Positions 1 through 54,712 of a stretch of DNA of 54,712 bases are shown here, piece by piece. Made by a program: the position numbers and the translations under genes. Every line of letters begins with the position of its first letter. Position 1 is the first letter of the stretch. Origin of the DNA: a virus; the IMG/VR virus record IMGVR_UViG_3300045988_057894, positions 1-54,712 of that record. The stretch is one strand, 5' to 3'. The notes under the pieces are model-generated. The model had not been told where the DNA came from, ran no database searches, and saw only the letters and a list, made by a program, of their open reading frames with translations.

Positions 1-119
1 AACAGTGCGTCAGATGCGAAAGGCATCGCATTGGTGGGGTCGTTCGTCCAATAGGCGGCAATCGCAGCCGGGGCAAAGACTTCCTTAAGATTCAGTGCCA
101 TGTTGTTTTACCTCTTATT
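1..119. repeat. Terminal direct repeat identical to 54594-54712 (overlap of a circular assembly)
   Basis: Both copies read aacagtgcgtcagatgcgaaagg...gttttacctcttatt. Bases 1-101 duplicate the 5' end of the capsid gene on the minus strand. Confidence 0.9.
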
Positions 120-3852: not shown

Positions 3853-5520
3853 TCAAAATGGCCTCTTGACAGGCTCAATTTTACTGATTCCGTTATATAA
3901 TTCATCGGCAAGCTGTGCCAGACTATCCGGTGCATCATCGTGCGGAACTTTGCCAAGCTGCGTGAACATCGTCACCTGTTCCATGAACGCCTTGTACTCT
4001 TTCGACTGGTGCTTTTCATCAAGGAAATAGAACCGTTTGATGTCCGGCGCATACTGGATGATTCTTGACAGCTTGCTTTGACCACTTGGCGCACGCTGGC
4101 TACGAACAGAGCAGTGATAGCCCTGCTGCCGGAGCTGGCTGTCCACTACGTCACAATATTCATCACCGCCGTTGTTGGCTTCGCCACGCATCACGTTGAT
4201 TTTGTGCTGGATAATTTTGCCCACAACTTCCGGTCTGGTCACAGTCTTGTCTCCGTTATTGAACACAAGGTCAGGAATGAACACGGCATCTCCGTACACA
4301 TAAGCGATAGGACAGGCGGTGAAGTCACCGCCACCCCATGCAATATCCATGACCATGAGCTTGCGATCGGGCTCTCCATCCGGAAGAATGCCGTTGTAAT
4401 ACCGTAATTCATCGGCAGGGAACAGCAGACCTTCACGCACATAAGGCTTGCCCATGTACTTTGCCCACCATGTTGCATCGTCAATACTGGCTTTCATATC
4501 GGCATAGTAGGCATCGTCAAAGCCAACGCCATAGTCATAATTGAAGTTGCTGTGTCCGTTCTCGTCTACCGCAGGAATCACACGGAATCTGTACTTTGGG
4601 TTGTCCGCATACTGGTTCTGAATGCGTCCCAGAGGGTCAAGCACGTTCCAGCGCGTACCGACCATCAGCTCTAATGCGCCTTGCTTTTTACGGTCTTTCA
4701 GCTGGTTCAGATAGGCATCGTACTTGTTATTCAGACGCTCAACGTTCAGGCTTTCCTCCAAGTCCTCAATTAGGTCATCGCTGTACAGAACGCCGCCCTC
4801 GCCAATTTCAACAGCACCAGTTAGCGTACCGCCGATGGAACGACAGGTCAGGGTTGGGAAGCGCTTCTTTCGGTTCAGGTCAACGCTTTCGTCCTTTGCG
4901 CTCTTATCCACAAGCTGAACGTCAGGAAAGATTTTGCCCCAGTTGTAGGTTACAGGGTCGGTGATGATGGACAGCACTTCACCATAGAAGCCGTTTGTCA
5001 GCTTGTCGGAATGTCCGCTCATAACCGATGCAACATCAGGGCGGTTGCCCATTAACCATGTGATAAAAAATATACAGAGCGTACTTTTTCCAGTTCTCGG
5101 GGGCTGACTGACCCCCAGAAATTCTACACGATGGAAAAACAAGTCCTCTAGGTCACGAACCAGCGTCAAAAGCACCTTGCGTCTCGGCTGATAGAACTTC
5201 TTCTCCGGCGCACGATTCCATTCAAGGTAAATGCAATAGCTGTCGAACACATCTTTTGCTTCAAACAGGTACGTCCGGCTGATAATATCATAGACCTTCG
5301 CCACGTCCTCGCCTGTTTTCATCTTGCCCATCATGGTTGCACAGACGGAGCGCAGCTCACCAGAGTATTTGTAGGCATCGAACCGTTTGTCCTGCGGCAG
5401 AGCGTCTTTCAGGTTCACCACCGCCTGAAACCAGTCCTCATAGACCTGTGCTTCGGTCGGATTCTGCTTTGCATACGCTTTGATGCTATCAATGATGGCG
5501 ATACACTGCTTTGGCTGCAT
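3853..5520 (-). CDS. terL: Terminase large subunit
   Basis: 555 aa. Walker-A-like PPRTGKST, a C-terminal nuclease-like block (MDIAWGGGDFTACPIAYVYG), and the portal gene downstream. Confidence 0.88.
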   Translation of the reverse strand: MQPKQCIAIIDSIKAYAKQNPTEAQVYEDWFQAVVNLKDALPQDKRFDAYKYSGELRSVCATMMGKMKTGEDVAKVYDIISRTYLFEAKDVFDSYCIYLEWNRAPEKKFYQPRRKVLLTLVRDLEDLFFHRVEFLGVSQPPRTGKSTLCIFFITWLMGNRPDVASVMSGHSDKLTNGFYGEVLSIITDPVTYNWGKIFPDVQLVDKSAKDESVDLNRKKRFPTLTCRSIGGTLTGAVEIGEGGVLYSDDLIEDLEESLNVERLNNKYDAYLNQLKDRKKQGALELMVGTRWNVLDPLGRIQNQYADNPKYRFRVIPAVDENGHSNFNYDYGVGFDDAYYADMKASIDDATWWAKYMGKPYVREGLLFPADELRYYNGILPDGEPDRKLMVMDIAWGGGDFTACPIAYVYGDAVFIPDLVFNNGDKTVTRPEVVGKIIQHKINVMRGEANNGGDEYCDVVDSQLRQQGYHCSVRSQRAPSGQSKLSRIIQYAPDIKRFYFLDEKHQSKEYKAFMEQVTMFTQLGKVPHDDAPDSLAQLADELYNGISKIEPVKRPF

Positions 5521-5612: not shown

Positions 5613-6188
5613 TCACCTGTTCTGTTCAGCAATCCGATACCATGTCTGGCGGGTCACGCCAAGCTGTTTGGCAGCGTCCGTGACCGTGAGAATGCGCTTC
5701 TCCACCTGCTCATGGAGAACGTCAAAGAGATTACGGTCATACTCGGTGGGCTTGCGGCCTTCCCTGTAATCGGGGCGCTGACTAGCAATCTTCTTGCCCT
5801 CTCTGGTGCGTTCAACAATCATATCACGCTCAAACTGGGCAAACACAAGGAACATACCTCTCATAGCCCTACTAGCAGGGGTGTTGTCCATAACACCAAG
5901 ATTCAGCACGTTCACCCGGATTCCTTTTTCAATCCATGAATCAATCAGTTCATACCCACCGACAAGGCTTCTGGCAACACGATCTAGCTTTGTCACAACG
6001 ATTGTATCACCGCTCTGGACTTCCGCTTCTAGCTTGTCCAGTTCCTTGCGTTCCATTTTAGTTCCAGTATATACCTCTTTGAAAATCTTAGTTGCGCCAG
6101 CAGCCTTAAGGGCTTCTTCCTGCGATTCAAGGCTGTTGCCGTCAATCGCCTGACCGGCGGAACTGACACGAGCGTAACCGTAAATCAT
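5613..6188 (-). CDS. Small serine recombinase (resolvase/invertase type)
   Basis: 191 aa. N-terminal YARVSS catalytic-serine motif and a C-terminal HTH ([10 protein letters not shown]). Too short to be a large serine integrase. Confidence 0.88.
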
Positions 6189-6204: not shown

Positions 6205-6432
6205 TCACTCTATGTCGATGCCCTCGCAATTTTTGAACTGCGCATCACGAGGAACAACTACAATTTTATATCCCATCATATTCAGCATTTCGTTTAGCTT
6301 ATTAACGCTAATATTTTTTTGAGAAAGACGTTCGCTTAAAGTTGGCTGTTTAATTTTAAGCCTGCTGCAAAGCTCCGCTTGTTTTATGTCCTCTTTTCTC
6401 ATAACCTCTTTTACTGCTTCTCCTGCTTTCAT
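6205..6432 (-). CDS. XRE-type HTH protein
   Basis: IKQAELCSRLKIKQPTLSERLSQKNISVNKL helix-turn-helix. Sits 16 nt upstream of the recombinase gene. Confidence 0.65.
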   Translation of the reverse strand: MKAGEAVKEVMRKEDIKQAELCSRLKIKQPTLSERLSQKNISVNKLNEMLNMMGYKIVVVPRDAQFKNCEGIDIE

Positions 6433-6546
6433 TTTTTGCATCCTCTCTTTCTTGATGCTATTATATCAGATGAACCCTATAAAATCAAGACATTTCTGAT
6501 ATTTCCACAATTTCCCAATGAACGCCCTTTATATTATATATAAATA

Positions 6547-10648: not shown

Positions 10649-10837
10649 ATGAAACTAGAATTCAGAACCAAGAACACCGCATACGGAATGGCGCACTATC
10701 TGTGCATCGACACTAACGCCAAAACCTTTTCCCGCGTCCCTGACGGCTGGGTATCTAAGGACGTGCCTGTTGTAGCAAAGCGGGACATGGACACACTCAA
10801 GGCGCAGGCCATTGCAGACGGTTACACGGAGGTTTAA
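10649..10837 (+). CDS. Hypothetical protein (62 aa)
   Basis: AGGAGG RBS. First gene after the promoter. Confidence 0.55.
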   Translation: MKLEFRTKNTAYGMAHYLCIDTNAKTFSRVPDGWVSKDVPVVAKRDMDTLKAQAIADGYTEV

Positions 10838-10840
10838 ACC

Positions 10841-11038
10841 ATGACAAGAACCGATGAAATCAACGCTGAAATTCGCAATCAGGCCGTGCGCCTTTATCCC
10901 AAGTGTGCCGGGCTGTTTGAGTTGCCGTTGATGGTATACACTCAGATTGTAGCGGACAACCTGACCCGCTCCAAGCCGTACCGTTTGAGCGTTGAGCGGT
11001 GTAAAAAAATCATTCTGGCGATGCCGGAGTTTGACTAA
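10841..11038 (+). CDS. Hypothetical protein (65 aa)
   Basis: Starts 3 nt after the previous stop and shares the cassette. Confidence 0.55.
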   Translation: MTRTDEINAEIRNQAVRLYPKCAGLFELPLMVYTQIVADNLTRSKPYRLSVERCKKIILAMPEFD

Positions 11039-11053
11039 TGGAGGCTTTACAGT

Positions 11054-11149
11054 ATGATCACTTTGGACTTTACCCAGTGGGCGGCGCTCTGGTATATTGG
11101 CGGCATGATCTCCGGCGCACTCGTTATGATCGCATTTCTTAACAGCTGA
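11054..11149 (+). CDS. Possible 31-aa membrane peptide
   Basis: GGAGG 8 nt upstream of the ATG. Hydrophobic core WAALWYIGGMISGALVMIAFL. Below the ORF-track size cut-off. Confidence 0.35.
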   Translation: MITLDFTQWAALWYIGGMISGALVMIAFLNS

Positions 11150-11162
11150 GGGGGCGCACAAA

Positions 11163-11438
11163 ATGACATACACGGCAAATAAAAAGGCATACAGCCTGTT
11201 AGAATCCCTTGCATATTGGATGGCTGAGATCTCCTATTGCAGGGAAAAAGACCCGGATGACATCGGTTTTTTAGACAAGGCAGATAAAACGATTCATTTT
11301 CTGTTTGGTCAGCTTGACCGGTCAGGCGTCCCGTTTTGGGCGCAAAACTCAGCGCTTGCAATCGGTGAGAATTGGAGAGAATACGAGCGGCGCAACCTTA
11401 GAACGCTATTCACGAACAAAGGGATTTTGGAGGGCTGA
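11163..11438 (+). CDS. Hypothetical protein (91 aa)
   Basis: ORF in series with its neighbours. No recognisable motif. Confidence 0.55.
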   Translation: MTYTANKKAYSLLESLAYWMAEISYCREKDPDDIGFLDKADKTIHFLFGQLDRSGVPFWAQNSALAIGENWREYERRNLRTLFTNKGILEG

Positions 11439-11443
11439 AAAAA

Positions 11444-11707
11444 ATGACCACATTCGAGGAAAAAGTGAACGCATACCGCGAAAACAAGCGGTTGATTGAA
11501 GAGCTTGAAGCAATGAATGATGCCGTAAAGGCTGAAATTATCGATATGATGCACGGCGCACCTGAAATGGTGCAGGGCACGGCAAAAGCCATTTACAGGG
11601 ATGTTTCTTCCGTCCGGCTCGATAGCAAGCTTTTACAGGCAGCACACCCGGATATTTACGCCGAGTGTAGCAAAAAGACCGTTTACAAGCGTTTTAGCGT
11701 GGTATGA
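11444..11707 (+). CDS. Hypothetical protein (87 aa)
   Basis: Closely follows the previous ORF. Coiled-coil N-terminus. Confidence 0.55.
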   Translation: MTTFEEKVNAYRENKRLIEELEAMNDAVKAEIIDMMHGAPEMVQGTAKAIYRDVSSVRLDSKLLQAAHPDIYAECSKKTVYKRFSVV

Positions 11708-11803
11708 GGGGGTGCGACAAGTGATATTATCCTGTATTCTGTTTGTTTTTTGGTTTTTCAGCGCTTTGTTCAAGGCGAGCAAATAAGGAGGGCTTATTAT
11801 ATT

Positions 11804-11959
11804 ATGACTAGCAAGGGATATAATGCAATGACCGGACTGTACACCACCCGATACTATGCACGCAAGGCCGCAACCGGTGCAGACGTTGTCGTCAAGGTCT
11901 GCGGCGGCTATACCATCATGACCGCGGCAGATTATAACGTCTGGCGGCGCCAGCGCTGA
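11804..11959 (+). CDS. Hypothetical protein (51 aa)
   Basis: AGGAGGG upstream of an internal ATG. Last gene before a strong terminator. Confidence 0.45.
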   Translation: MTSKGYNAMTGLYTTRYYARKAATGADVVVKVCGGYTIMTAADYNVWRRQR

Positions 11960-11976
11960 CCCTCTTCCCATTTCTA

Positions 11977-12006
11977 CCCCGCCCACGTTGGCGGGGTTTT
12001 TCTTTT
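11977..12006 (+). terminator. Rho-independent terminator of the plus-strand cassette
   Basis: CCCCGCC cacgtt GGCGGGG followed by TTTTTCTTTT. Confidence 0.7.
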
Positions 12007-12628
12007 GCCTTGCACCTGCTGAGGGTGCGGGGCTTTTATTTTGCCCGGCGGCGCATGAGCCGCATACAAGCGTTTACGGCGGCTTTTCTGTTGCAGATGC
12101 AATTTATACAGCCAAAATGCCAAAACCGTTTACGGGGCTTCGCAGAAGCGTTTCCGTTGATTTGACCCATTCCAGCCCATACAATACAGCGGCCACACAA
12201 ACCGCCTATATACCGCCTGCGGCACGTTGGAGCGTATCACAGCGCCGCAGCACCTCCACCGATACCAGATACCAGCGCCACGCCGGACGCTGTACAGGTC
12301 AGCACAGCCGCCCTATTATAATAAGGTATATAATGGTGTAGAGGTGCGCCCCTGTTATGGATCCATGCCAGACAGTGCAGCACATCGCAGACCATGCCAG
12401 CCCGGCGGGGTCAGCCCCTGCCGCCTGTGGATTGCTGGCAAGTGCTGACACACTACCAGCAGCACAGACCCGGCGCACCTGCTGAGGGGTCAGCGCATCC
12501 ACCTGTACAGGGACAGCCCGGCACCCTACACCCGGCGGGGCAGTCCAGCGGCGGGTGGCGCGGAACCATTAGCAGCTACCGCCGCATCTCTTTTCGGGCT
12601 TTCGCCCGATAGCTAATAGAGGTCAGCA

Positions 12629-13295
12629 ATAGTCGCAGCGTTCCGGCTGGAATAGTCGTAACAGCTTTTGGAATAGTCGTAGCCGATAGTCGTAGGTTCT
12701 CCCGGCGGATAGTCGTAGAATAGTCGCAAAGTCGTCAGACGACCACTGTTTGAAAGTCCTATATATAGTATAGTAACGAGCTATCCACTGATAGTCGTAA
12801 AGTAATAGTCGTAGCGTTTTCTTACGAGCCTTCGTCAAATAGTCATGTATTTTTTGTGTGAAATAGTCGTTTGCCTTTTAGGGAGAGAGAAGTGCGATAG
12901 TTGCTAAATCCTCAAACCACCTCAAAATCAATATGTGTCAAGACACCAGTCAATTTTAATCTCCATCGCATTACCTCAAAATCCTTAGCAATCGTACTTA
13001 TTATAATAGTCGCAGACAATTACTCAATCTTTTTAACTATTATTCTGCTAAAATAGTCGTATCATCCGGTTCGGTTTGTTTTTCTCCGATTTAATTACCG
13101 ACAACTACAATCATATTATACTAACCAACTAGGATTATTCATTCGGTAAATACCTCAATACTTTTAACTATCTAATAAAACTATCCAACTGGTCAGTTGC
13201 TTTCAACTTGTAATCAACCACTCATACTGCTATGCAACATTTTTACATATTCAACCGACTACAAAATGAAGTCAATTCTCCATGTGAAATAGTCG
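12629..13295 (+). repeat. Iteron field: 12 exact ATAGTCG cores plus 2 variants, all in one orientation (candidate phage origin)
   Basis: Cores start at 12629, 12652, 12673, 12686, 12709, 12720, 12791, 12805, 12839(v), 12863, 12897(v), 13006, 13053 and 13289. An AT-rich tract with a second repeat family (tac(c)tcaat..ttttaacta) spans 12900-13260. Confidence 0.75.
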
Positions 13296-13529
13296 TAGCA
13301 GTTGATGGCTTAGATGCCGTTACTCCATGCAGGTTAGATGTTGTTGCTGTTAGAGGTCACCCGGTCGGCGCGGTGCGCCGGACGATAGACGGTGACGTAG
13401 CGTGGAGGTTAGCTGAACGGTCTGCTTATATTCAGCCAATAAGAGCCTGACGACAGATGCTAGTTACGGTCTGCTCTGCTGGCTAACGGTGTAGCTTTGG
13501 AGATAGAGGGTTGTAGGGGGAAAGAACCT

Positions 13530-14234
13530 TTACAAACGATTGAACTCTGGTTCACTGTACTGCCGCTTCTCCCGCTCCTTGTCAATCCACATATCAGCAA
13601 AGGCCTTCCAGTTTGTTATAGGCTTTCCGGTCTTGGTCATCCAGCCTGTTCCCTCATAGTAGTTCATGAACTTGATGGCAAGCCTGTTCTCACATCCAGC
13701 ATCCAAAAAATACTCGCTCACGTCCTCGAAGTCCGGCGTGATGGCGTTTCCATCGGGCGGGTCGCCCGCTTTCTTAATAACTTTTTTTCTTTTCTTTTCT
13801 TCTATATTAAGGAGGTGAACGATTGTTCCCCTCACAGGTGAAGTATCGTTCCCCTCAGAGGTGAATGATTGTTCACCTCCCTTTTCGCTTTTTGACGATT
13901 CTTCCGGCACTTTGACGTATATCTTATCGGGCTTGTTCTTTCCTTCACGCTTGCGCTCGATCAACCCGGCTTCTTCCAGCTCTTTCAGAGACTTCTTGAC
14001 CCATCGTTCCGTGAATCCAGTATCAGCAGCAAGGTCTTTGATGGGATACACGATGTATACTCGCCCCAGTTGGTCAGCAAACTTTCCGCTTCTGCTTGCC
14101 CTCTGTGACGACCTTGCACGATTGAACAGGTAAACGTAAACAATTTTCTCTGTTGGGCTAACGTCAATAGTCGAGAGGAATCGAGGGTAGACCATGTACC
14201 CATTGACCTTTGTATCGGCTGTCATGTACTCCAT
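13530..14234 (-). CDS. Winged-helix replication initiator / replisome-organiser-like protein
   Basis: GGAGGAG RBS. wHTH-like YIVYPIKDLAADTGFTERWVKKSLKELEEAGLIERKREG and a C-terminal NWKAFADMWIDKEREKR motif. Adjacent to the iteron field and upstream of nothing else. Confidence 0.65.
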   Translation of the reverse strand: MEYMTADTKVNGYMVYPRFLSTIDVSPTEKIVYVYLFNRARSSQRASRSGKFADQLGRVYIVYPIKDLAADTGFTERWVKKSLKELEEAGLIERKREGKNKPDKIYVKVPEESSKSEKGGEQSFTSEGNDTSPVRGTIVHLLNIEEKKRKKVIKKAGDPPDGNAITPDFEDVSEYFLDAGCENRLAIKFMNYYEGTGWMTKTGKPITNWKAFADMWIDKEREKRQYSEPEFNRL

Positions 14235-14407
14235 TTTCTCCTCCTGCAATAGTTGTAGACTTCTACAATGCGCTCACAGCCCCGTAGAGCCGTGCCAAAG
14301 CCGTTTTCTGTGTTTGGTCGATAAGTTTGTCGTCTAATGCTAAAAGCGTTTATATGGCTTCTGTGCGCGTATATGCAAAAGGCTGCCATTGCTGACAGCC
14401 CATGCGC

Positions 14408-15613
14408 TCAGTCCATCCAAGTGTACTCTTGGAACCGTTGAATCTGCTTGTTAAACGTGATGGGAAGGTCGCCTATCTCGCCTTCCTTGTTCTTGCTTAG
14501 TCGGAACAGGCACTTGTCGGGGTTGTCGCCGGACAGAAGGATGATTGCATCTGCGTCCTGTTCAATCTGCCCGCTCTCTCGCAAGTCGGAGTTTGTAGGC
14601 GTTGCTCCGGGCTTGGATGGGTTTCGATTGAGCTGCGCCAGTGCCACCACAACAATGCCTGTGGTCTGTGCCAGTTCGTGCAGGGCAATGGATATAGCTG
14701 TAATGGCGGCATATCTGTCCTTTGCGCCTGTTTCGTGGATGAGTTGAAGATAGTCTACAAAGATGACCTGAGCCTTTTTACGTAGAGCCTGAGCCTTCAT
14801 CCACGCCACGTTCTTACCGGCAGCGGAGCGGATATATAAGGGCATTTTCATGTTTTTTGCCTGTCCGTCAATCTCATTCAAGCTGACCGCCTTATTTTTC
14901 ACCGTGTCCAGAGGGCAGTATATTTGATTAGCCATCAGACGTGCGCCCAGCTTGCGTTTGCTGGTTTCTAAGCTGAAATAGTACACGGTATAGTCCTGCT
15001 TTGCCATGCTTGCTGCTATTTGCAAGGACAGGGCTGTCTTGCCCGCAGACGGTCTGCCGCCGATGATGATGAAATCACCCGATGAGATGTGCAGTGCTTC
15101 ATCCAGACGTTCTAGGCCTGTCTTGATATACACAGGCTTCTCGTCCATGTGAAGCACATAGTCGTTCAGCACATCCTCGTATGTCCACGCATCTTCTTCC
15201 CCAGCTTTCAGGCTCATTGCTTCGCCCATCTGCTGGTAAATGTCTGATAGATCAGAATAGTCGGTAAGCTCGCTGGTCATCTGAAATGCCAGACCTTGCA
15301 CACGAGTGAGTGCAGCTTGTTCTCTGATAAGCTGTGTCCAACGCTGCATTTGCTCCCTGTCAATTCGCACACACTCTGATTCACAGGTTTGTACACACGC
15401 CAAGAGCGTCTGCGCTACGTCTGGATGCTGCGTGTTTATCTCGACTATATCTATCTTACCCCTAGCCGTCCAATAGCCCTGAACAGCCGCAAAAGCGTCT
15501 CTCAGCTCAGGTCTGAATAAGTCAAGTTCAAGGCCTGGTATGATTTCATCCACAACGCCCGGCTTGCAGAGCATCAGCGCACCGATAAATACCGTTTGAA
15601 CGTCCATTGTCAT
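14408..15613 (-). CDS. dnaB: Replicative DNA helicase, DnaB family
   Basis: Walker A GGRPSAGKTALSLQIA and the FVDYLQLI and ALAQLNR motifs. ATGA overlap with the upstream gene. Confidence 0.88.
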   Translation of the reverse strand: MTMDVQTVFIGALMLCKPGVVDEIIPGLELDLFRPELRDAFAAVQGYWTARGKIDIVEINTQHPDVAQTLLACVQTCESECVRIDREQMQRWTQLIREQAALTRVQGLAFQMTSELTDYSDLSDIYQQMGEAMSLKAGEEDAWTYEDVLNDYVLHMDEKPVYIKTGLERLDEALHISSGDFIIIGGRPSAGKTALSLQIAASMAKQDYTVYYFSLETSKRKLGARLMANQIYCPLDTVKNKAVSLNEIDGQAKNMKMPLYIRSAAGKNVAWMKAQALRKKAQVIFVDYLQLIHETGAKDRYAAITAISIALHELAQTTGIVVVALAQLNRNPSKPGATPTNSDLRESGQIEQDADAIILLSGDNPDKCLFRLSKNKEGEIGDLPITFNKQIQRFQEYTWMD

Positions 15614-16250
15614 AGTCTAGGAAACTCCATCTCCGTACTTTGCTCGTACTGTTCATCCTGTTTTAATGCGTAAATGTCCTGCCACCCGGCATAGATGCTC
15701 TGGTCGAGAATGGCTTTCCAATCATGCCGATCAAACTTTTCCAGCTTGTTGCAGAGCATTTGTTTCGCCCGGTCTGTCATAGGCTTTTTGATTCTTGTAC
15801 GCATCTGTGCGAACTCTCGCAGGGATTCCAACAGGGCTTTATCGCCATGAGCAAAGTCGGAGAAGATGTCAGGTTTCTTTTTGACTGCACTCTCCGGCAG
15901 GGTCTTGACGTTCATTTGACCGTCAGTTGATACAATGGACTCATTGTCATCTGACTTTGAGCTCATAGATGAGCTGACTTTCATCTCATTTATGGCATGA
16001 GGATGAGCTGACTTTCGTGTAGACCATCCTTTTGACGCAATATCGCTTCTTTTTGATTCTTCATCGAGCAGATGTTTAATCAAAATGAAACAAGATTCTG
16101 CTTTTTTTTTGAGTTCAAAGTTGCGTCTTTTTCTTCAAAAACGTATGCACAGATTGCATCGTAGAGTTCCAACTTCTCTTTACTTTTGAGTGTGGAGATG
16201 GCTTCAAAGTAATATCGTTGAAATGTAAAGCTGTCTCGTTTTTTGTCCAT
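15610..16250 (-). CDS. Replisome-organiser-like protein encoded in two frames joined at an A9 run
   Basis: A 56-codon ORF (16250-16080) reads MDKKRDSFTFQRYYFEAISTLKSKEKLELYDAICAYVF. The -1 frame is open from 16134 to 15610 and ends in a conserved phage C-terminal-type domain (LLESLREFAQMRTRIKKPMTDRAKQML). Confidence 0.55.
16101..16110 (-). promoter_or_regulatory. A9 run containing A AAA AAG in the upstream frame (candidate -1 frameshift / slippage site, or a homopolymer miscall)
   Basis: Minus strand reads TCA AAA AAA AAG. An 11/12-bp AT-rich hairpin (16089-16047) starts 11 nt downstream. Confidence 0.4.
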
Positions 16251-19385: not shown

Positions 19386-19567
19386 TTGTCAGCCCTCACC
19401 ATGATTGTGTTCTTCTCTTTCAGCCAGTCCTTGACGCAATGAAAGCAATGCTCACGGTTCTGGCAACGCTCCGGGTCACGATGTTTGATAAGTTCGCAGA
19501 TGCCCCGCGTAAAGTTTTCTGTAATATCTTCGTCCGTCATGGAACGGATAAAATCGCCGTTAGTCAT
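19373..19567 (-). CDS. Hypothetical protein (64 aa)
   Basis: ATG overlaps the end of terS. Contains CxxxxxxCxxC. Confidence 0.45.
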   Translation of the reverse strand: MTNGDFIRSMTDEDITENFTRGICELIKHRDPERCQNREHCFHCVKDWLKEKNTIMVRADKWEL

Positions 19568-20315
19568 GTTCCACCACCTCTCTGTACTCCACGTCAATCC
19601 CTTTTGGCAAAGCCGTCTGATACTTCTGAGCCAACTGCTCTGCGCTCTGGGCATCACCCAACGGCTGTTCAGGCGGTGCAACGGTGACTTCCACGTTGTC
19701 ACGCATACCAAAGTAGTTCTTGGCTCGGAAAATCCACTCTGCCGGGTTCTCCTGACCGTACATACCGTTGTACGCCCACATGGATTGCATTTGCAGAATC
19801 AGTTTCAGGATGTACTTCTGCTGCAAGCTGTCGTCACGGCGCTTGCCCGCCATAATCTGCTTCAGGCTCACCCATTCGATGCCCAGCACCAGTGCAATCC
19901 ATTCCACCACAGGGGAGATTCTGGCTTCGATGCAAGCGTCAAAGAAGAAGTCAAGACGTTGCTGCACTTCAATCGGGTTGTTCATGTCCACGCTCGGAAG
20001 GTCGCCAAAATACTTAGCTGCAATCATGCCGATGACCTTCTTGTCCTCTTCGTCACCAATCCTCGACTGCAAATCGCCTGTGTTCATCATCTTCAGCTTC
20101 TCGATAGCCAACGCCTGTTGCTCCTTTACCTTCTTACTGACCTGTGATCGGATGCTCTTGTTCTTGTTAAGGTTCTGTATCCGCTTCTTCTCACGCTCTT
20201 TTTCACGCTTCGCAGCGGCTTGCTCTTTTGCCTTTTGCGCCCGCTTCTCACGCTTTTTCTTTTCAGCTTCGGTCAGCGGCGGCCTGCCACGACCACGCTT
20301 CGGGGGTGTTGCCAT
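19560..20315 (-). CDS. terS: Terminase small subunit (gp3-packaging-like)
   Basis: Basic N-terminus. ISPVVEWIALVLGIEWVSLKQIM HTH and ENPAEWIFRAKNYFGMRDNVEV resemble the PT.EGLAL.LG and N.AGAIF.LKN.FGY.D motifs of small terminases. Confidence 0.7.
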   Translation of the reverse strand: MATPPKRGRGRPPLTEAEKKKREKRAQKAKEQAAAKREKEREKKRIQNLNKNKSIRSQVSKKVKEQQALAIEKLKMMNTGDLQSRIGDEEDKKVIGMIAAKYFGDLPSVDMNNPIEVQQRLDFFFDACIEARISPVVEWIALVLGIEWVSLKQIMAGKRRDDSLQQKYILKLILQMQSMWAYNGMYGQENPAEWIFRAKNYFGMRDNVEVTVAPPEQPLGDAQSAEQLAQKYQTALPKGIDVEYREVVEHD

Positions 20316-29844: not shown

Positions 29845-30130
29845 TTGTCGAATTATCGTAGTTTTTTAAGAACATTTTGTCCACGTTCATCCACTTTTTG
29901 TACACCTATCGGACAAATTTACCTTGTCATTCCGTCCCCCATAGGCTGCAAATCGACAGTATTCGCGCTGAATAAATAACGAATTATCGTTAATCTGATG
30001 TTTGTGTTTGAATAGTTCGTCAATCCGTCCCCCATAACACCGGCTCAAAAGTTTTTCATCCACATTTTGTACACGTTAGATAAGACTAATCATTGTCGGA
30101 AAGACTTTATTCAGCAAATGGAAGGTTGAG

Positions 30131-30139
30131 TTATCCACA
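30131..30139 (+). promoter_or_regulatory. Consensus DnaA box
   Basis: Exact TTATCCACA, about 100 bp upstream of the iterons and next to an AT-rich tract (30215-30245). Confidence 0.6.
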
Positions 30140-30245: not shown

Positions 30246-30343
30246 ATGGGGGACGAAATGACAAAGCATGGGGGACGTTTTGACAAGTCATGGGGGACGT
30301 TTTGACGACCATATGGGGGACAAAAAGACAAGTCATGGGGGAC
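30246..30343 (+). repeat. Five direct iterons (core ATGGGGGAC) at 22/22/23/22-bp spacing
   Basis: Cores at 30246, 30268, 30290, 30313 and 30335. Inverted copies GTCCCCCAT at 29934-42 and 30027-35. A partial inverted copy (acgtcccc) lies inside the rep promoter spacer. Confidence 0.85.
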
Positions 30344-30877: not shown

Positions 30878-31957
30878 ATGCCAAAAATATCAGACAATAA
30901 CCTTGTCGAGAAAAGCAAATCCCTTGTTTGGGCGAAATTTAGGGACTACACCGCAGGAGAACTTCGGTTGTTGGAGGTTTACCTATCAAGAATAAATCCG
31001 AGAGACCCAAACAGCAGCCGTGTGGAGTTCTCGTTGGCAGAGTACAGAGACCTGCTGGGGTTAAAAAGCCTTGATGCACGAAGGATTGAGCCGCAGATCA
31101 AGCACTTTCTAGGCAATACAGTGTCGATTCCCATTGACAAAGAGAAGGGCACGTTTGAGAGTTTTGTCCTTTTCACAAGGGCAAAACTGGATTATGTGCC
31201 GGAAACAAGGTCTTATGTTGTGGCAATCACTTGCAACCCTGATCTTCGCCCCATCTTTTTTGATATTGCCGAAAGCGGGTACGTTCGGTATCGTCTGCGC
31301 TACACATCACGGATGAAATCACAGTACAGCATCCTGCTTTATTCTATTCTTCGGGACTGGTTGAATATGGACAACAAACCGCATGAAATCAGTCTGAAAA
31401 GGCTAAGAGAACAGCTCGGTGCGATGGAAGCAAGCTACGATGTTTACAAGAACCTTCGTAAACGAGTGCTTGATGTTGCAGTGGATGAAATCAATGCTGT
31501 GTCTGACATCGTGGTGACCTATGAACCGGTTCTTGTGGCACGAAAGGCCGTGGCAGTCAAGTTTAAGCCCAAAATTAAAGCGTCTGAGACACTGATTGAA
31601 GCTCAGGCAAGCGAAATATCGACCGAACCTCAAAAATCCACCAGAAAGCCCCGTAGAAGCGGATACGAGGATTTTGACTGGTCTGTGTGTGACGAGCTGG
31701 AAAAGCAAGACTGCATTGACGTGGCAAAAGTGGTTGAGAAGTGGATGAAGAAAGAGCATCCAGAAATCAAGCTGCCGAGACGCAGAGAAGCGGTTTACGA
31801 GACGGTAAAGGCAGCGTATAAGGATATTTTGTCTTTGGACAGGTCTCCGTTCCCCGACAGACCTGTTGGTTATCTGATTAGAAGCGTGGACAAGGCAGGT
31901 ATCGTAGACAAGTATATGCCAGCGTTTTATTCCATTGAAGCGCTTAACAGCAAATAA
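30878..31957 (+). CDS. Plasmid replication initiator, Rep_3 (RepB/RepE-like) family
   Basis: TAAGGAGG RBS. N-terminus NNLVEKSKSLVWAKFRDYTAGELRLLEVYLSRI, then YSILLYSILRDW, ISLKRLREQLG, YKNLRKRVLDVAVDEINAVSDIVVTYEPV. This pattern fits iteron-binding initiators, and iterons lie directly upstream. Confidence 0.8.
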   Translation: MPKISDNNLVEKSKSLVWAKFRDYTAGELRLLEVYLSRINPRDPNSSRVEFSLAEYRDLLGLKSLDARRIEPQIKHFLGNTVSIPIDKEKGTFESFVLFTRAKLDYVPETRSYVVAITCNPDLRPIFFDIAESGYVRYRLRYTSRMKSQYSILLYSILRDWLNMDNKPHEISLKRLREQLGAMEASYDVYKNLRKRVLDVAVDEINAVSDIVVTYEPVLVARKAVAVKFKPKIKASETLIEAQASEISTEPQKSTRKPRRSGYEDFDWSVCDELEKQDCIDVAKVVEKWMKKEHPEIKLPRRREAVYETVKAAYKDILSLDRSPFPDRPVGYLIRSVDKAGIVDKYMPAFYSIEALNSK

Positions 31958-31972
31958 AGAAAGAGTGATAAA

Positions 31973-32746
31973 ATGGCAAAAATCATAGCTATCGCCAACC
32001 AGAAGGGCGGCGCAGGCAAAACCACCACAAGCACCTGTCTGGCTGGCGCGTTGCAGTTGCTTGGCAAGAAAGTCTTACTGGTAGACTGCGATGCCCAGTG
32101 CAACGCAACGGACACTTACGGCGCACAGACAGAGGACGTATGTACTTTGTTCGATGTAATGACCCGTCAGGGCACGGTAGAGGAAGGAATCCAGCACTGC
32201 GAAGCTGGTGACATTCTGCCGTCAGACAATGCATTGAAGGACATTGACGAGCAGCTTGTCCGGGACATGGGCAAGAACTTCCGGCTGCGTGAAGCACTGG
32301 AATCCGTGTCTGAACAGTACGATTACATTGTTTTGGACACTCCCCCGCAGCTCGGTCTTGCGCTTGTAAACGCTCTGATTGCCGCCAACAGCATCATCGT
32401 GCCCATTACGGCAGACCGATATGCACTGGCTGGTCTGAGCCAGCTTTCGCAGACCATTGGCGACGTTCGCAGATACTTCAACCCGACCTTGAAGATTGAA
32501 GGTCTGCTTCTGAACCAGTACAAGAGCCGTGAGAACCTGTCTAAAGAGGTCGTGGAACAGCTCCCTGTGATTGCACAGAGCATGGGCACAACCCTGCTGG
32601 ACGTGAAAATCAGACCGTCTATGGGCGTTCGCAAGTCACAGGCAGAACGACACAGCCTGTTTAGTGGTGACACGGCAAAGAGCACCAGTGCAGAGGACTT
32701 CAAGGCGTTGGCGCAGATGATTGTGAAAGGAGAAGAAAATGAGTAA
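31973..32746 (+). CDS. parA: ParA/Soj-type partition ATPase
   Basis: Deviant Walker A IAIANQKGGAGKTTTS and VLLVDCDAQCNAT. 257 aa with no N-terminal HTH (type Ib-like). Confidence 0.9.
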   Translation: MAKIIAIANQKGGAGKTTTSTCLAGALQLLGKKVLLVDCDAQCNATDTYGAQTEDVCTLFDVMTRQGTVEEGIQHCEAGDILPSDNALKDIDEQLVRDMGKNFRLREALESVSEQYDYIVLDTPPQLGLALVNALIAANSIIVPITADRYALAGLSQLSQTIGDVRRYFNPTLKIEGLLLNQYKSRENLSKEVVEQLPVIAQSMGTTLLDVKIRPSMGVRKSQAERHSLFSGDTAKSTSAEDFKALAQMIVKGEENE

Positions 32747-33065
32747 GAAGATTGTAGACGTTGCTCCCTTGATGGAATATTATAAAAACAGACTTCTTGA
32801 AGAAGGTGACAATCAAGCGTTGGAAGATGCGTTAGAAAGGTTAAGAGCGTTAAGAAATGCTGATGTGCAAGATTTACAGACAAAAGCAACATGGGAACGT
32901 CCAGAGGGTTTGACTTTTATTATTCAGGACGATTATGATAACAGCCATGCAGAGCAAGCAATTAAATGCAGTAATTGTGGTGGTATGATTTCCGAAAGCG
33001 ATTTCGACAAGTGGATTTGGAATTTTTGCCCAGTATGCGGCGCAAAAATGGAGGAAGAAAAATGA
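32739..33065 (+). CDS. Zinc-ribbon protein inserted between parA and the parG-like gene (paralogue of 21808-22122)
   Basis: Overlaps the parA stop. C-terminus CSNCG...NFCPVCGAKMEEEK. Confidence 0.55.
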   Translation: MSKKIVDVAPLMEYYKNRLLEEGDNQALEDALERLRALRNADVQDLQTKATWERPEGLTFIIQDDYDNSHAEQAIKCSNCGGMISESDFDKWIWNFCPVCGAKMEEEK

Positions 33066-33634
33066 AATCAACCAGCAAAAAATCCTCTGGCTTGCTTGGA
33101 GGCTTTGATTTCCAGCCTGTTTTTTCGGAACCAGTATTAAGCCAAAGTGAGCCAAAGGAAGAAGAAGTAAGCCAAACAAAGCCGAATAATGCCGAACAAG
33201 CACTAATTAAGCCTAGTGATGCCATAGACAGCCATGCACAGCCAAGTGAAGCGGAATTAAGCAGTATTAAGCCGAAGCAAGCCAAAGACAGCAAAAGCCA
33301 GCCAAGTGATGCCGTGTTAGGCGAAGGTAAGCCGAAGAAGCTGAAACAGGCAAAGGAAACGAAACGGCTGATTGAACAGGGCAATATTCCCGGCGCACTG
33401 GCTGAAGCTGGTTTGACAAAGAAAAAAATCCCGATGCCGGAATCGCATCAGGGCGTTGCAAGCGGTGATGGCAAGCGTTCAAAGCGCATTACCATCCTTA
33501 TGAGCGAGGAGGAGCGCAAGTACATCAACCGTGAAGCCAGACGGCACGGAATGACCATCGGACAGTTCGTGTACGCTCTGGCTGCTGCTGCGGCAGATGG
33601 GAAGATTGAATTGGAGGATTTCTTAGATGAATGA
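33062..33634 (+). CDS. ParG/omega-like ribbon-helix-helix protein with a long repetitive N-terminal region
   Basis: ATGA coupling. C-terminus KRITILMSEEERKYINREARRHGMTIGQFVYALAA fits RHH. N-terminal 130 aa is low-complexity (SQ.KP / SEPK repeats). Confidence 0.6.
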   Translation: MKSTSKKSSGLLGGFDFQPVFSEPVLSQSEPKEEEVSQTKPNNAEQALIKPSDAIDSHAQPSEAELSSIKPKQAKDSKSQPSDAVLGEGKPKKLKQAKETKRLIEQGNIPGALAEAGLTKKKIPMPESHQGVASGDGKRSKRITILMSEEERKYINREARRHGMTIGQFVYALAAAAADGKIELEDFLDE

Positions 33635-46650: not shown

Positions 46651-49600
46651 TTAGTAGCTATAAATTTCACTGCCCATTAAAGATTGCCCGCGAGAATTCT
46701 GCTGCTTTTCAACAGACGCAGTGATTTGCTTTCCGTCGATGTAAAGCTTGATTTCCTTGCCACCGTTGATTTCGTCGCCGTACCGCTGGAAAATATCAAG
46801 AAATGCGTTGTAGCAACCGTTATAAACCGAGCTTCTAAGCTCTTCTGCGCTGACGCCTGGATTGGTAGTATACGAACCGCTAGATACAGTTCCGGATCCG
46901 GTCGTTTTGTCGTAATCGCTCGTGCCTGGATACTTGGAAATATCGGTGATGACAGAAGAATCAGACTTGGACGAAGAGAACTTTCCGCCAAGCGCCCCGA
47001 CAATGCCAGTAATGGCAGCTGCGATCGCAACACCACCTGCAATCAGGAGAACGCCGGTGGGAATGCCAAGAGACGTCAGGACACTGCCGATGGTTTGGAG
47101 CAACCCCATGAATGCCGTGCCAACTTGCCCAATCAGGCCAGCTACGCCAGCAATAATACTGGGGAATTGGCTCAAAACGCCGCTAGACAAACCAACGCTA
47201 ATTGCATTGCCCGCAACTGCCATCGGGCCGGACATACTTGCAAAACTCGTCATGATTTTATTTCCAAGCCCAACGGCTTGACTTGCAATGTTTCCGAACT
47301 GTGAAGTGATGCCGGCAAGGATGTTTTGTCCAATTCCCTTTGCAGAAACAAGAGCTTTTGCGCCAACGTCCTTCAAGGCTTTAGTCAGCGTGGAAATCAG
47401 GTTGGAAGTGTAGGACTTCACTTGATTCCGGTTTTCTTCACCCATTGCCTGCCAGATGATAGCTGCGGTATTAGTAGCAACAGTCTGAATATCACCGCTT
47501 TTTACAGCTTCAACCATTCCTTTAATAGTCCCAACAAAATCGTTTTTAAGGCCACTGTCGATTTCGCTCCACTTAGAGTTCAGCGTGTTCACGATGTTAT
47601 CAACAAATCCGGTTGCAACGCTAGAGCCATAGTCAATCATCTCGTTGCCCTTCTGCTGAACAGCGTTTGCCAGATTGGTCATGGCTTGTTCAACGTAAGG
47701 AAGTGCTGCAGTGATACCGTTCGCAAGGCCTTGGTCAATAAATTCACCAAAGCGCTCAAACAGAGCGGAGGGAGAGTGAATTTCAGTGTCGTTCGTAAAC
47801 TTATCAATAATAGCTTTTGCAAGATTTGCCGCAGCGCCTTTTGCGGTTTCAATGCCGCTTTTGATACCATTTACGAGGCCCTGCCAAATGTTTTTGCCTG
47901 CTTCAAACATTTTGGAAGGAAGAGAAGCAATAGCATTTGCAACGGCTGTTACCATATCGGAAGCAGCTTTTGCGGCATCTTTTGCCCACGTTTTGATATC
48001 ATCGATAAATCCACGAACAGCTCTCGCACCGTTTTCGACGTGTTCATCGAGATGTACGAACCATGTAACAACATCCTTTACCCAATTGATAAGGTCAGCA
48101 AAACCAAGAACCGCCTTTTCGATGAAGTTACCGTTCATCTGAATATCAAGACGGTCGGTTTCACTCACTCCATTGGTAATCCATCCGACAAACACTCCGA
48201 TATCGTGAATCAGCTGAGCAATGCCCATGACGGCATTCTCGATGAAGTTACCGTTCATCTGTAAGTCAAGCCTGTCAGTTTCGGAAACACCGTTCTGAAT
48301 CCATCCAATAAAAATTGCGAAATCATTGATAAGGTTTCCAATGGCTGTAATTGCGTCACCTACAAAATCAGCAACTTTTTCGCCCATAGACTTGAAAGCA
48401 TTGAACCAGTCCGTTTCCATCTCAAAAGCTTCTTTTTGACTTTCGCTACCAAGACCACGAACTGCAACAGTGATAGCTTCAAAACCAAGAACAGCAAGAC
48501 CGGCTACAGGATGACCGCTAACAATAAGACCGATGCCCATAAGTGTTGTAATTAAATCACCAACATCAAGATCAAGGTCTTTTACAGCGTCAGAGATTGT
48601 TTTGAACGCAGAAGAAATACCCTCCTGCCAACTTTCTGGAATGAGATTCCAGATTACTTGCTTTAAGTTAGAAAAAGATTCTTTCAGGTATTTGATGGAT
48701 TCTCCGAGTTTTCCATCTGTGAGTGATATATTCCAACCCTGCCTAAGCCCTTCCGCAGCAAGGTAAATCATAGCTTGAACACGTTCAAGGCCTTTTCGGA
48801 ACGCTTCACTGTTTTGGTATAGGTCAACAAAACGAGCAACCATGATGCCAACAGCGACAGCTGCTCCCATAATGGGAGACTTCCAAAGCTTGAGAATTCC
48901 TTCAATTAAAGAGCCATCGCCTTTGATTTTATTGAGAGCTTCAAGCAAAGCGTTGCCAATAGCCCACGTTGCAAATCCGGCAGAAATACCAGCAATCAAT
49001 GGCGCAAGCTTTTCCAGCTTTGCCTTGATTTCGTCCACGGCGTTGCCAACATAGTTCTTGAACATATCGTAGCCGGACAGGTCTACATCACCCAAGATGT
49101 TGCCAGCAGATGCGCCGCTACCAGAGCCGGAGCTTCCCTGTGTGGGGTCAATGATGTTCAGTTCATCAAAGCCCATCGTGTAGTCCTTGAGGGCTTTGGC
49201 AGCTTTCTTTGTCGAATCGGTTGTGTTATCCATTGCGTCACCGATGCCACCAACGCTGTCAGCGCTCTTAGTGAAATCAGTAAACACGACCTTCACACCC
49301 ATCAGTTTTGCCACCCATTCAACGAACTCTCGAATGAGCTGTACGGCGGCAATCAGCGGGGGAAGAATGGATTTCATGGCAGGGTAGAGCAGAGAGCCAA
49401 CAGACTTCGCCAGCATATCCAACTGCGCTTTCAGAATCTTAATCTGGTTCGCAGGACTCTGGATGGTCTGTGCAAGGTTGCCCTGCACGTTGGCAGTCTG
49501 CTTCATAATGGCAATGTAACGCAGAACCGCCTTATCTGCCTGAGACAGACTAGAAACCTGCTTGTTAAAGCCCAAAGCTAGAAGCTCCTGCTGCAACCGT

Positions 49601-50682
49601 GCCTGAGACAGGTCAATGCCCAAACGACGAATAGGCTCAATCTCACCAGAGATTGCGGAGGACATTGCGGTAAAGGTCTCTGCAACGTCCTTGTTCCAAT
49701 AGGAGCCTTCATCATAGGCAAGCTGAGTCAGGTTCTTAGACAGAATGTATGCCTTGTCGCTGGTCAGGCCAAACGAAGTACCCAAGCTCTGAATGGTAGC
49801 CATGTAGGTCATTGCTTTGGTCGGATCAACGCCAAGCAAGCCCTGCATCTTGCTAATGAGCGTATCAGCTTCACCGCTCAAATTGCCCATAGCATTATGA
49901 AACAGGTCTGTTGCTTCATAGAAGTCGTTAAACTTCGCAACAGCGTTGCCAAGATACTCAGCGATAGCTTTCAACGAAACCAGCTTTGCCATATTCCGCA
50001 TAAAGCCGTTCATCTGATTGGACAGGCTGAGATAGCTCTTGCGCTGCTTTTCGTTGGCAGCAGTCACACGGTTAGCCTGTGTAACCACCTTGCTCAACTG
50101 CGGAGGGAGCTTCGCAAAAGCGTTGCCCACCTTTTCAAGCTGAGATACAAGGGGAGAAAGAGCAGCAGAAATCTTCTGACAAGAGCTTGCAAAAGAATCA
50201 AGGTCAGTCGCTTTCAGCTTGTCGGTCAGGTCAGGAACCTTTCCGATCGCATTGAAAGCACTGCCAAGAGCTTTAAGGTTCGATGCATCCAGAATGGACA
50301 GCGGAGCCAAAGCGTTAGTGAGCTGAGTAATGCTTCCAGACATGGAGTAAAAGTCCACGCCGTTCAAGCCAGACACAGCCGCAGGAATCTTCTTGATTGC
50401 ATTCACGACCGTGTTGATGCTCTTTGCGCTTGCGGTCGTGTTGACGTTGGAGAGCCCATTCAGAAAGCTGGTGATTTTGTCCAGCCCGGACATTCCAGCG
50501 GATGCCTGTTTAAGCGTTGCAATGGAACCAGCCAGCTTGTCAAGGCTATTCACAACCTTTGCCACGTTGCCCTTTGTGCGCAAATTAGAAATGGCGGTAG
50601 CGAGCTTGTCGATATTAAGCTCTGCGCCCTGCGATTCCGCAGAAATCTCTACGGATAAGCTCGTAATATCAACATCAGCCAT
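46651..50682 (-). CDS. Tape measure protein (1343 aa)
   Basis: Very long, Ala/Gly/Ile-rich, helical, with hydrophobic segments. Follows the G/GT chaperones. Contains a 120-bp internal tandem duplication. Confidence 0.85.
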   Translation of the reverse strand: MADVDITSLSVEISAESQGAELNIDKLATAISNLRTKGNVAKVVNSLDKLAGSIATLKQASAGMSGLDKITSFLNGLSNVNTTASAKSINTVVNAIKKIPAAVSGLNGVDFYSMSGSITQLTNALAPLSILDASNLKALGSAFNAIGKVPDLTDKLKATDLDSFASSCQKISAALSPLVSQLEKVGNAFAKLPPQLSKVVTQANRVTAANEKQRKSYLSLSNQMNGFMRNMAKLVSLKAIAEYLGNAVAKFNDFYEATDLFHNAMGNLSGEADTLISKMQGLLGVDPTKAMTYMATIQSLGTSFGLTSDKAYILSKNLTQLAYDEGSYWNKDVAETFTAMSSAISGEIEPIRRLGIDLSQARLQQELLALGFNKQVSSLSQADKAVLRYIAIMKQTANVQGNLAQTIQSPANQIKILKAQLDMLAKSVGSLLYPAMKSILPPLIAAVQLIREFVEWVAKLMGVKVVFTDFTKSADSVGGIGDAMDNTTDSTKKAAKALKDYTMGFDELNIIDPTQGSSGSGSGASAGNILGDVDLSGYDMFKNYVGNAVDEIKAKLEKLAPLIAGISAGFATWAIGNALLEALNKIKGDGSLIEGILKLWKSPIMGAAVAVGIMVARFVDLYQNSEAFRKGLERVQAMIYLAAEGLRQGWNISLTDGKLGESIKYLKESFSNLKQVIWNLIPESWQEGISSAFKTISDAVKDLDLDVGDLITTLMGIGLIVSGHPVAGLAVLGFEAITVAVRGLGSESQKEAFEMETDWFNAFKSMGEKVADFVGDAITAIGNLINDFAIFIGWIQNGVSETDRLDLQMNGNFIENAVMGIAQLIHDIGVFVGWITNGVSETDRLDIQMNGNFIEKAVLGFADLINWVKDVVTWFVHLDEHVENGARAVRGFIDDIKTWAKDAAKAASDMVTAVANAIASLPSKMFEAGKNIWQGLVNGIKSGIETAKGAAANLAKAIIDKFTNDTEIHSPSALFERFGEFIDQGLANGITAALPYVEQAMTNLANAVQQKGNEMIDYGSSVATGFVDNIVNTLNSKWSEIDSGLKNDFVGTIKGMVEAVKSGDIQTVATNTAAIIWQAMGEENRNQVKSYTSNLISTLTKALKDVGAKALVSAKGIGQNILAGITSQFGNIASQAVGLGNKIMTSFASMSGPMAVAGNAISVGLSSGVLSQFPSIIAGVAGLIGQVGTAFMGLLQTIGSVLTSLGIPTGVLLIAGGVAIAAAITGIVGALGGKFSSSKSDSSVITDISKYPGTSDYDKTTGSGTVSSGSYTTNPGVSAEELRSSVYNGCYNAFLDIFQRYGDEINGGKEIKLYIDGKQITASVEKQQNSRGQSLMGSEIYSY

Positions 50683-54694: not shown

Positions 54695-54712
54695 GTTGTT
54701 TTACCTCTTATT
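54594..54712. repeat. Second copy of the terminal overlap (identical to 1-119)
   Basis: Base-for-base identity, read by eye. Confidence 0.9.

Follow-up and report, generated by a model that had tools for sequence, protein, structure and literature searches.

What does a field of short direct repeats do when it lies beside the gene of a replication initiator in a phage genome, and which protein reads it? The question is raised by IMG/VR virus record IMGVR_UViG_3300045988_057894, analyzed here over its full 54,712 nt (positions 1 to 54,712, hereafter "the window"), in which the 7-mer ATAGTCG recurs on the plus strand near an AT-rich stretch, past the 3′ end of a minus-strand initiator gene (13530–14234). 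An earlier account made from the letters alone (the sequence-only reading) took this field to be the iteron origin of the 13530–14234 protein, and thus a second origin on the same circle. We find that the array is tied in position and polarity to the gene for the small terminase subunit (TerS) across phages that share little else. At a probability of roughly 55%, we favor the explanation that the field is a TerS-linked cis-element, i.e., a terminase-loading (pac-type) packaging-recognition region.

ATAGTCG has 16 copies in the window (expected, 3.3), a count that was reached in 0 of 100 shuffles. Twelve of these copies are on the plus strand within 12629–13295, 11 of them match the 9-mer ATAGTCGYA exactly, and the consensus of the array is R-ATAGTCG-Y-A. 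A proximal block (12629..12903, plus strand) holds nine exact sites (at 12629, 12652, 12673, 12686, 12709, 12720, 12791, 12805, and 12863) and three degenerate ones (12728, AAAGTCG; 12839, ATAGTCA; 12897, ATAGTTG). Two further sites, 13006 and 13053, lie within the AT-rich stretch (12904..13288; GC ~0.30–0.34), and a distal exact site (13289..13297, plus strand) follows it. The 14 same-orientation sites (12 with an exact core) counted in the sequence-only reading were therefore a fair tally, as twelve exact and three degenerate sites are found in 12629–13297, and the proximal spacing of 11–23 bp that it gave agrees with the measured values of 23, 21, 13, 23, and 11 bp. The spacings peak at 11, 23, 34, 47, 58, and 71 bp. 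Spacings of 34 and 24 bp in relatives suggest that the sites corresponding to 12839 and 12897 are exact there.

The array is conserved in more than 100 related gut phage contigs, and 7–14 copies are present in every locus with sufficient downstream DNA among ~80 close relatives, with copy number differing among relatives through unit indels. Motif columns are 95.6% conserved versus 78.8% for spacer columns; site by site, conservation is 97%–100% against 73%–95% for the flanks (75 relatives). The array is also present in a relative of 76% identity (L084) in which the spacers have diverged. Because the motif is better conserved than the spacers, even in this relative, we conclude that the sites are functional. 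GC content is 0.30–0.37 across 12800–13300 and falls to 0.30–0.34 between 12900 and 13300, and this AT-richness is conserved as well, the minimum over 200 nt being 0.29–0.39 in 75 of 75 relatives. The second repeat family that had been noticed in the AT-rich stretch does exist in the window (TACCTCAAAATC-like, three copies, plus a 23-mer in two copies) but is not conserved, since the ACCTCAA copy is absent in 39 of 75 relatives.

The link to packaging starts from the identity of TerS. The only candidate in the window is encoded at 19560..20315 (minus strand, 251 aa), because the spot directly upstream of the large terminase (TerL) gene is occupied by a serine recombinase and not by TerS. The protein carries an N-terminal AT-hook-like KRGRGRP motif and is P22 gp3-like. 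The 19560–20315 product itself gave no direct Pfam or PHROG match; PF16677 (the P22 gp3 DNA-packaging family) matches 12 of 23 members of its family, with a best E of 1.4e-13. In the predicted structure the core has a pLDDT of ~90, and Foldseek returned 11 BFVD matches at E <= 0.001, all but one of which (10/11) are named terminase small subunit or DNA-packaging protein. Against the PDB it found 3p9a, the nonameric TerS of P22 (prob 0.75, TM 0.52–0.57).

In distant phages that carry the array, the 19560–20315 product is the only window protein with a homologue nearby. A motif-first scan, with TerS detected by profile, placed terS upstream of the array and in the same orientation in 38 of 38 viral loci that have a TerS in the available DNA (in the sense of the minus-strand terS gene, the plus-strand sites of the window read CGACTAT). 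At 16 of the 38 loci, no more than 33 nt separate the array start from the end of terS: the offset is exactly −21 in 13 of them, with others at −33, −28, −22, and +11. Two loci in Clostridia metagenome-assembled genomes (MAGs), found in a genome scan (L216 and L325), likewise start at −21, for a total of 18 terS-abutting loci. The remaining 22 of the 38 belong to the phage family of the window, with the array 5.2–8.1 kb downstream of terS.

The converse, terS-first scan gave the same picture. A same-strand CGACT(A/T)T array of 3–14 copies begins at the stop codon in 53 of 80 diverse terS loci, with 0 on the opposite strand, and other terS loci have GTAACTTT, GCAGAA, or CGTGTAGT repeats at the same post-stop position. 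Often, the terS-linked layout is bipartite around an AT-rich core of ~140 bp, which is followed by a GC-rich segment; the window has the same layout. Two of the marks of a pac-type system, a terS gene and a cis-site genetically linked to it, are thus found. The pac-type reading follows from this tight, polarity-fixed linkage to terS across lineages that have little else in common, together with the retention of the position even where the motif is a different one. Contig ends fall 135–444 bp past terS in 8 of 80 terS-locus contigs versus ~2 expected, which is a weak signal of packaging starts.

By way of observation, the GC-rich segment of the window (12010..12628, noncoding, GC up to 0.69) has four same-strand copies of GGTCAGC, and in distant phages the terS-linked arrays are likewise followed by a comparable segment, which carries GCTGA(T/C)C motifs and a hairpin.

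No replication gene shows a comparable constancy. For allele counts, the 120 loci of a triple-motif scan of viral contigs were pooled with initiator-first loci, and the initiator was scored as present at a cut-off of 80% identity. The phage family has two alleles of the DnaB-type helicase, A and B (98% or ~48% identical), and the array is present with every combination of DnaB allele and initiator: A with initiator, 79 loci; B with, 10; B without, 31 (a group that counts L084, which carries the initiator at 76% identity); and A without, 17. The array is therefore kept in ~47 relatives that lack this initiator. In some of them (L091, L109, and L330) a 100-aa gene or noncoding DNA takes its place with the array retained; L203 is a further example. 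It is also retained beside an initiator allele of only 35% identity (L097 and L200). The array thus neither co-varies nor obligatorily co-occurs with the adjacent initiator, and no replication protein is constant across the array-bearing loci.

How might such a region work? A ring-shaped TerS oligomer would load at the array on concatemeric DNA, letting the large terminase make the first cut. With 9–14 sites of 10 bp, all in the same sense and set ~11.7 bp or a multiple of that apart, one face of the DNA would be offered to the helix-turn-helix (HTH) motifs of the ring. For SF6/SPP1, it has been proposed that the DNA wraps around a ring of such motifs spaced about one helical turn apart (PMC4737164), and we infer that the ~9 proximal sites and the spacing peaks of the window would fit DNA wrapped in this manner. 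The AT-rich stretch could plausibly be bound by the AT-hook-like tail or be the zone that is cut. Distant relatives retain what would be the ancestral layout, in which the array begins within the last 21 nt of terS. In the family of the window, a mosaic early/replication module of 5–8 kb has come to separate the two.

Known pac systems offer partial parallels. The TerS of P22, gp3, is a nonamer, and the pac of this phage, an asymmetric sequence of ~22 bp, occurs once, within gene 3. The window TerS belongs to the same family (by PF16677 in relatives and the 3p9a structural match), but the array is multicopy and lies outside terS, whereas the P22 site is single and intragenic. In the pac of SPP1/SF6 (pacL-pacC-pacR, with boxA/B/C direct repeats bound by G1P), sets of short direct repeats are likewise linked to terS and flank a central region (PMC4737164). 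However, the SPP1 repeats are few and span promoters and the 5′ start of terS, whereas here 9–14 one-polarity 10-bp sites lie at the 3′ end of terS or 5–8 kb downstream; also, the TerS fold is P22 gp3-like here and SF6-like in the SPP1 system.

Several points weigh against a packaging role. One comes from TerS itself. TerS sub-lineages differ in motif at the same place, and yet phages with ~98% identical TerS (L355/L354 vs. L356) have GTAACTTT in one case and CGACTAT arrays in the other. Because near-identical proteins go with different motifs, TerS is not a simple one-to-one determinant of specificity. A single reader for both motifs is possible, as the two have a core of ACT(A/T)T in common and some copies within CGACTAT arrays read CAACTAT. 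Conversely, a TerS of only 38% identity (L330) goes with an unchanged motif. The array is 6.3 kb from terS in the window, which is unusual for pac sites, and the excess of contig ends past terS could reflect assembly breaks at repeats. Finally, an array beside an AT-rich stretch also has the appearance of an origin, and a host factor is a possible reader of the sites.

The phages with exchanged motifs merit a closer description. In L354/L355 versus L356 (and also in L346 vs. L349), the primase-helicase, a 104-aa protein, and TerS are ~97%–98% identical, and the bipartite array after terS has the motif ATGTAACTTT in one and RCGACTATC in the other. The pattern has the look of a cassette exchange, its breakpoints being the stop codon of terS and a terminator that both share farther downstream. 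In the L346/L349/L356 sub-lineage, a 110-aa NUMOD-like protein varies together with the array motif; because the window lacks this protein and L353/L354 have a truncated form of it, it was rejected as a general reader of the array.

More tentatively, and with odds that we put clearly below even, the array may represent an undescribed kind of pac in a large clade of gut Firmicutes phages with a P22-gp3-like TerS. It would be a modular, one-polarity cassette of 9–14 sites, each of 10 bp and phased at ~11.7 bp around an AT-rich core, that normally starts in the last codons of terS, is workable from 5–8 kb away, and can be swapped (CGACTAT for GTAACTTT) between phages with ~98% identical TerS. On this reading, recognition would proceed via the shared ACT(A/T)T core, or via DNA shape and wrapping, rather than by a code of one protein for one sequence.

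The alternative that survives best, although we regard it as unlikely, is that the array and the AT-rich stretch form a lytic origin read by the DUF6291/DnaD-like replisome organiser, another phage protein, or a host factor. The build is origin-like: short repeats of the same sense lie on both flanks of a 400-bp AT-rich region, all relatives share the AT-richness, and the array sits at the end of the replication module. Twelve exact, directly repeated sites adjoin a region of 0.30–0.34 GC, as in an iteron-type origin. The field also resembles origins of the SaPI/P4 type, in which short iterons lie to the left and right of an AT-rich region just past the 3′ end of the initiator gene. Moreover, the organiser and DnaB of relatives without the RepA_N-family initiator (L091 and L330) still need an origin, and none was identified in them. 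However, iterons of SaPI/P4-type origins co-vary with the adjacent initiator, whereas the array here is independent of it; it stays the same whichever of the two unrelated organiser alleles, or of the two DnaB alleles, is present. In distant phages it abuts terS, with no shared replication gene nearby. The SaPI/P4-type layout is truly present in L354 and L356, after the primase-helicase gene: these phages and L346 have a separate classical origin right after this gene (TGTTGCAGAAAC iterons, inverted copies, and an AT-rich tract), and for this reason their terS-linked array is not a replication origin. The cumulative GC skew of the whole circle has its global minimum at the origin of a Rep_3-type replicon (see below) and no turning point at the ATAGTCG field, and a scan for DnaA boxes found none in the field, supporting the Rep_3 origin only. 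When the k-mers of the AT-rich region were compared between DnaB/organiser allele groups, no repeat emerged as cleanly organiser-specific; repeats inside the initiator gene dominated the signal.

It is also conceivable, but quite improbable in our view, that the field serves some other regulator or structural protein, either as a polar barrier to replication or transcription where operons converge, or as a sink for a repressor that also controls the initiator gene. The location suits such roles. The field is held by a noncoding stretch of ~1.5 kb in which plus-strand genes converge on the minus-strand initiator, DnaB, and organiser genes. The plus-strand genes (10649–11959) end at 11959 and are followed by tandem terminators at 11976–12043. 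All of the sites have a single polarity, and the finding of different motifs with near-identical TerS hints at another reader. In addition, a degenerate site, ATAGTTGTA (14249..14257, plus strand), lies ~15 bp upstream of the start codon of the initiator and overlaps a palindrome, TTGTAGActTCTACAA; an exact ATAGTCG is present at the equivalent position in most relatives. On the other hand, no candidate protein co-varies with the array in general (the NUMOD-like protein does so in one sub-lineage only), and without TerS it would be difficult to account for an array start that is fixed at −21 of terS from lineage to lineage. In the field, scans for promoters and terminators gave nothing above background, except for the two terminators that close the plus-strand operon. 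Rfam searches (gathering threshold over the whole window; E-value mode over 11700–13600) returned only a transfer RNA and sub-threshold noise, with no structured-RNA support in the 1.5-kb noncoding region.

Two details of this region should be mentioned. The palindrome upstream of the initiator start codon is perfect (TTGTAGA-ct-TCTACAA, 14249–14268) and, with the overlapping degenerate site, could be an operator that couples an array-binding protein to initiator expression. Adjoining the distal exact site there is a 50-bp block (13230–13279) with a conservation of 0.92, far above that of the AT-rich DNA around it; within the block are a dyad (ATGAAG...CTTCAT in L084) and, directed at the array, a possible −35/−10 pair.

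Could the array instead be the partition centromere of the plasmid state, acting at a distance from the par operon? The proteins involved would be ParA and a ribbon-helix-helix (RHH) protein, and we consider this a remote prospect. Type Ib centromeres typically consist of arrays of short direct repeats, and no obvious centromere-like array was found near the par operon itself. In a Clostridia MAG contig from reindeer rumen (L286; 7160–7790), dense ATAGTCG repeats with a 12-bp period lie directly upstream of a gene pair for a ParA (38% identical to that of the window) and an RHH protein. However, the array of the window is 19 kb from parA, without the adjacency of type Ib systems, and a comparison of the RHH proteins of L286 and the window found no similarity. 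The constant neighbor in unrelated phages is terS rather than par genes. The L286 match may also be due to chance, since numerous unrelated genomes have tandem repeats with ATAGTCGYA. Indeed, most of what a triple-motif scan of genome contigs recovered was unrelated tandem repeats, spread over many phyla and with periods of 8–33 bp; the exceptions were the two terS-linked loci (L216 and L325), L286, and L238. The last is a Fibrella contig (1100–2610) in which 21- to 22-bp repeats containing ATAGTCGTA adjoin a Rep_3 gene. The same short core in a centromere-like (L286) and an iteron-like (L238) array is possibly a coincidence.

The proposal of the sequence-only reading, that the ATAGTCG sites are iterons of the winged-helix initiator and form a lytic origin with it, is the least tenable: the array does adjoin the 3′ end of the gene, and most relatives have the extra site just upstream of its ribosome-binding site, but ~47 relatives have the array without the gene, the 35% identical allele goes with the same array, distant phages have the array abutting terS, and the gene has allele-specific iterons of its own, under synonymous constraint, in line with the family precedent of an origin inside rep (PMC5703833).

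If the array is not the origin of this module, where is it? The initiator (13530..14234, minus strand, 234 aa) is of the RepA_N family, with a winged-helix N-terminal domain, a linker, and a C-terminal domain. It matches N-terminal domains of RepA structures in the PDB (4PTA, E 4.8e-7; 4PT7, 5KBJ, and 4PQL, ~1.6e-4 to 1.7e-4) and PHROG replication-initiator families. PF06970 is assigned to its homologues, the window protein itself scoring 22.9 bits versus a cut-off of 30. Within the gene, three semi-palindromic direct repeats of 22/23 bp (GAGGTGAAnnATnGTTCCCCTC) lie at 13812–13879, next to an A-rich tract (13770–13811) that follows them in the sense of the gene. Across 62 distinct alleles, third-codon variability is 0.001–0.006 over gene nt 355–465 (equivalent to 13770–13880) versus 0.03–0.17 elsewhere, a drop of ~10- to 50-fold over the repeats. 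Such synonymous constraint is the signature expected of an overlapping cis-acting DNA element. The gene of L084 has four copies of the repeat. The 35% identical allele of the sister phages L200 and L097 has four 23-bp repeats at the same position in the gene but of different sequence, and two RepA_N genes of conjugative elements (L085 and L087) have four 23-bp intragenic repeats each at this position too, with unrelated sequences.

This arrangement is known from RepA_N plasmids. The Rep protein of pSK41 binds four Rep boxes in the center of rep, and the DNA involved encodes a dispensable linker (PMC5703833). Semi-palindromic repeats beside a poly-A tract within rep have been described more widely (PMC5703833, PMC7145576). 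Like these replicons (pSK41, pTZ2162, pAD1, and the RepA of PLE, which have 3–4 central repeats), the window gene combines an N-terminal RepA_N DNA-binding domain with central semi-palindromic repeats beside a poly-A tract in DNA that encodes the linker. Unlike in the plasmids, the gene is found in a phage, beside a phage DnaB and a DnaD-like organiser, as an optional cassette in the family. Given its own constrained repeats, the allele-specific repeats of other genes, and the published arrangement, the second origin of the circle is most likely intragenic, in a candidate region at 13770..13880 (minus strand). The initiator would bind the three 23-bp repeats and the A-tract in the linker of its own gene, and so serve a lytic-type replication module.

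The remainder of this module consists of the DnaB-type replicative helicase (14408..15613, minus strand) and the DUF6291/DnaD-like organiser (15610..16250, minus strand), so the field does lie downstream of initiator, DnaB, and organiser, as was originally described. The organiser gene is frameshift-split in the window: two open reading frames (ORFs) meet at an A9 homopolymer near 16100, where 66 related loci have A7 and an intact gene of ~212 aa. The A9 run may be either a true frameshift or a homopolymer sequencing error. In the family, the organiser exists in two unrelated forms, DUF6291 or a 234- to 249-aa protein. The module as a whole is mosaic in L004–L209 (corresponding to 13530–16250 of the window), where RepA_N may be present, absent, or of the 35% identical allele, and DnaB and organiser alleles occur in all combinations.

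The other replicon is of the Rep_3 type. It has five iterons of ~22 bp with a ATGGGGGAC core (30246..30343, plus strand), an initiator (30878–31957), and ParA (31973–32746). Upstream of the five direct iterons (29926–30139) there are two inverted iterons (29934 and 30027) and two DnaA-box matches (30056 and 30131). The ATAGTCG motif shares nothing with the Rep_3 iterons, as had been pointed out. The earlier suggestion of two replication systems on one circle thus holds for the Rep_3 replicon (iterons, DnaA boxes, and ParA, ~30–33 kb) and the RepA_N/DnaB/DnaD-like organiser module (13.5–16.3 kb), but not for the ATAGTCG field as the second origin. Phage P1 is an example of such a genome, with an oriR/RepA plasmid replicon that has partition genes and an oriL/RepL lytic replicon on one circle. 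The window resembles it in pairing a replicon for plasmid maintenance, accompanied by partition genes, with a separate module that is presumably lytic. The types differ (Rep_3 and ParA versus RepA_N and DnaB), and the division of labor is presumed here. The RHH protein (NikA-like, C-terminal; ~33062–33634) is encoded by the second gene after ParA, and its disordered N-terminal part is encoded by AAGCC-rich repeats with a 10/30-nt periodicity (33129–33314).

With regard to the genome overall, the record is a closed circle of 54,593 bp, as window positions 1–119 are repeated at 54594–54712 (a 119-nt assembly overlap). Relatives are very abundant among human-gut viral contigs. The element looks like a phage-plasmid, because a portal, a large terminase, and an ORF of tape-measure size occur alongside Rep_3, iterons, and ParA. 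The portal is of the SPP1 type (1389–2945), TerL is at 3853–5520 (minus strand), and the 1348-aa ORF at 46651–50697 is taken as a tape measure from its size alone. Directly upstream of TerL, where one would look for TerS, are the serine recombinase/invertase (5613–6188, minus strand) and, upstream of both, an HTH protein (6205–6441, minus strand). The distant relatives L193 and L331 retain the order HTH, resolvase, TerL, portal. A search for cultured relatives with mapped ends gave a single annotated TerS, a distant one from a Pseudoalteromonas phage.

For annotation, the lesson is that an initiator need not have its origin in a repeat field simply because the field lies beside it and an AT-rich stretch. 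Within this phage family, the RepA_N cassette and the DnaB and organiser alleles are interchangeable parts. To our knowledge, very few pac sites have been established. If the link to packaging is real, the array would be a pac-site signature for hundreds of uncultured gut phages, one that would help to predict packaging starts, transduction potential, and hijacking by satellites. Pairs of phages with swapped motifs would be natural experiments on DNA recognition by small terminases.

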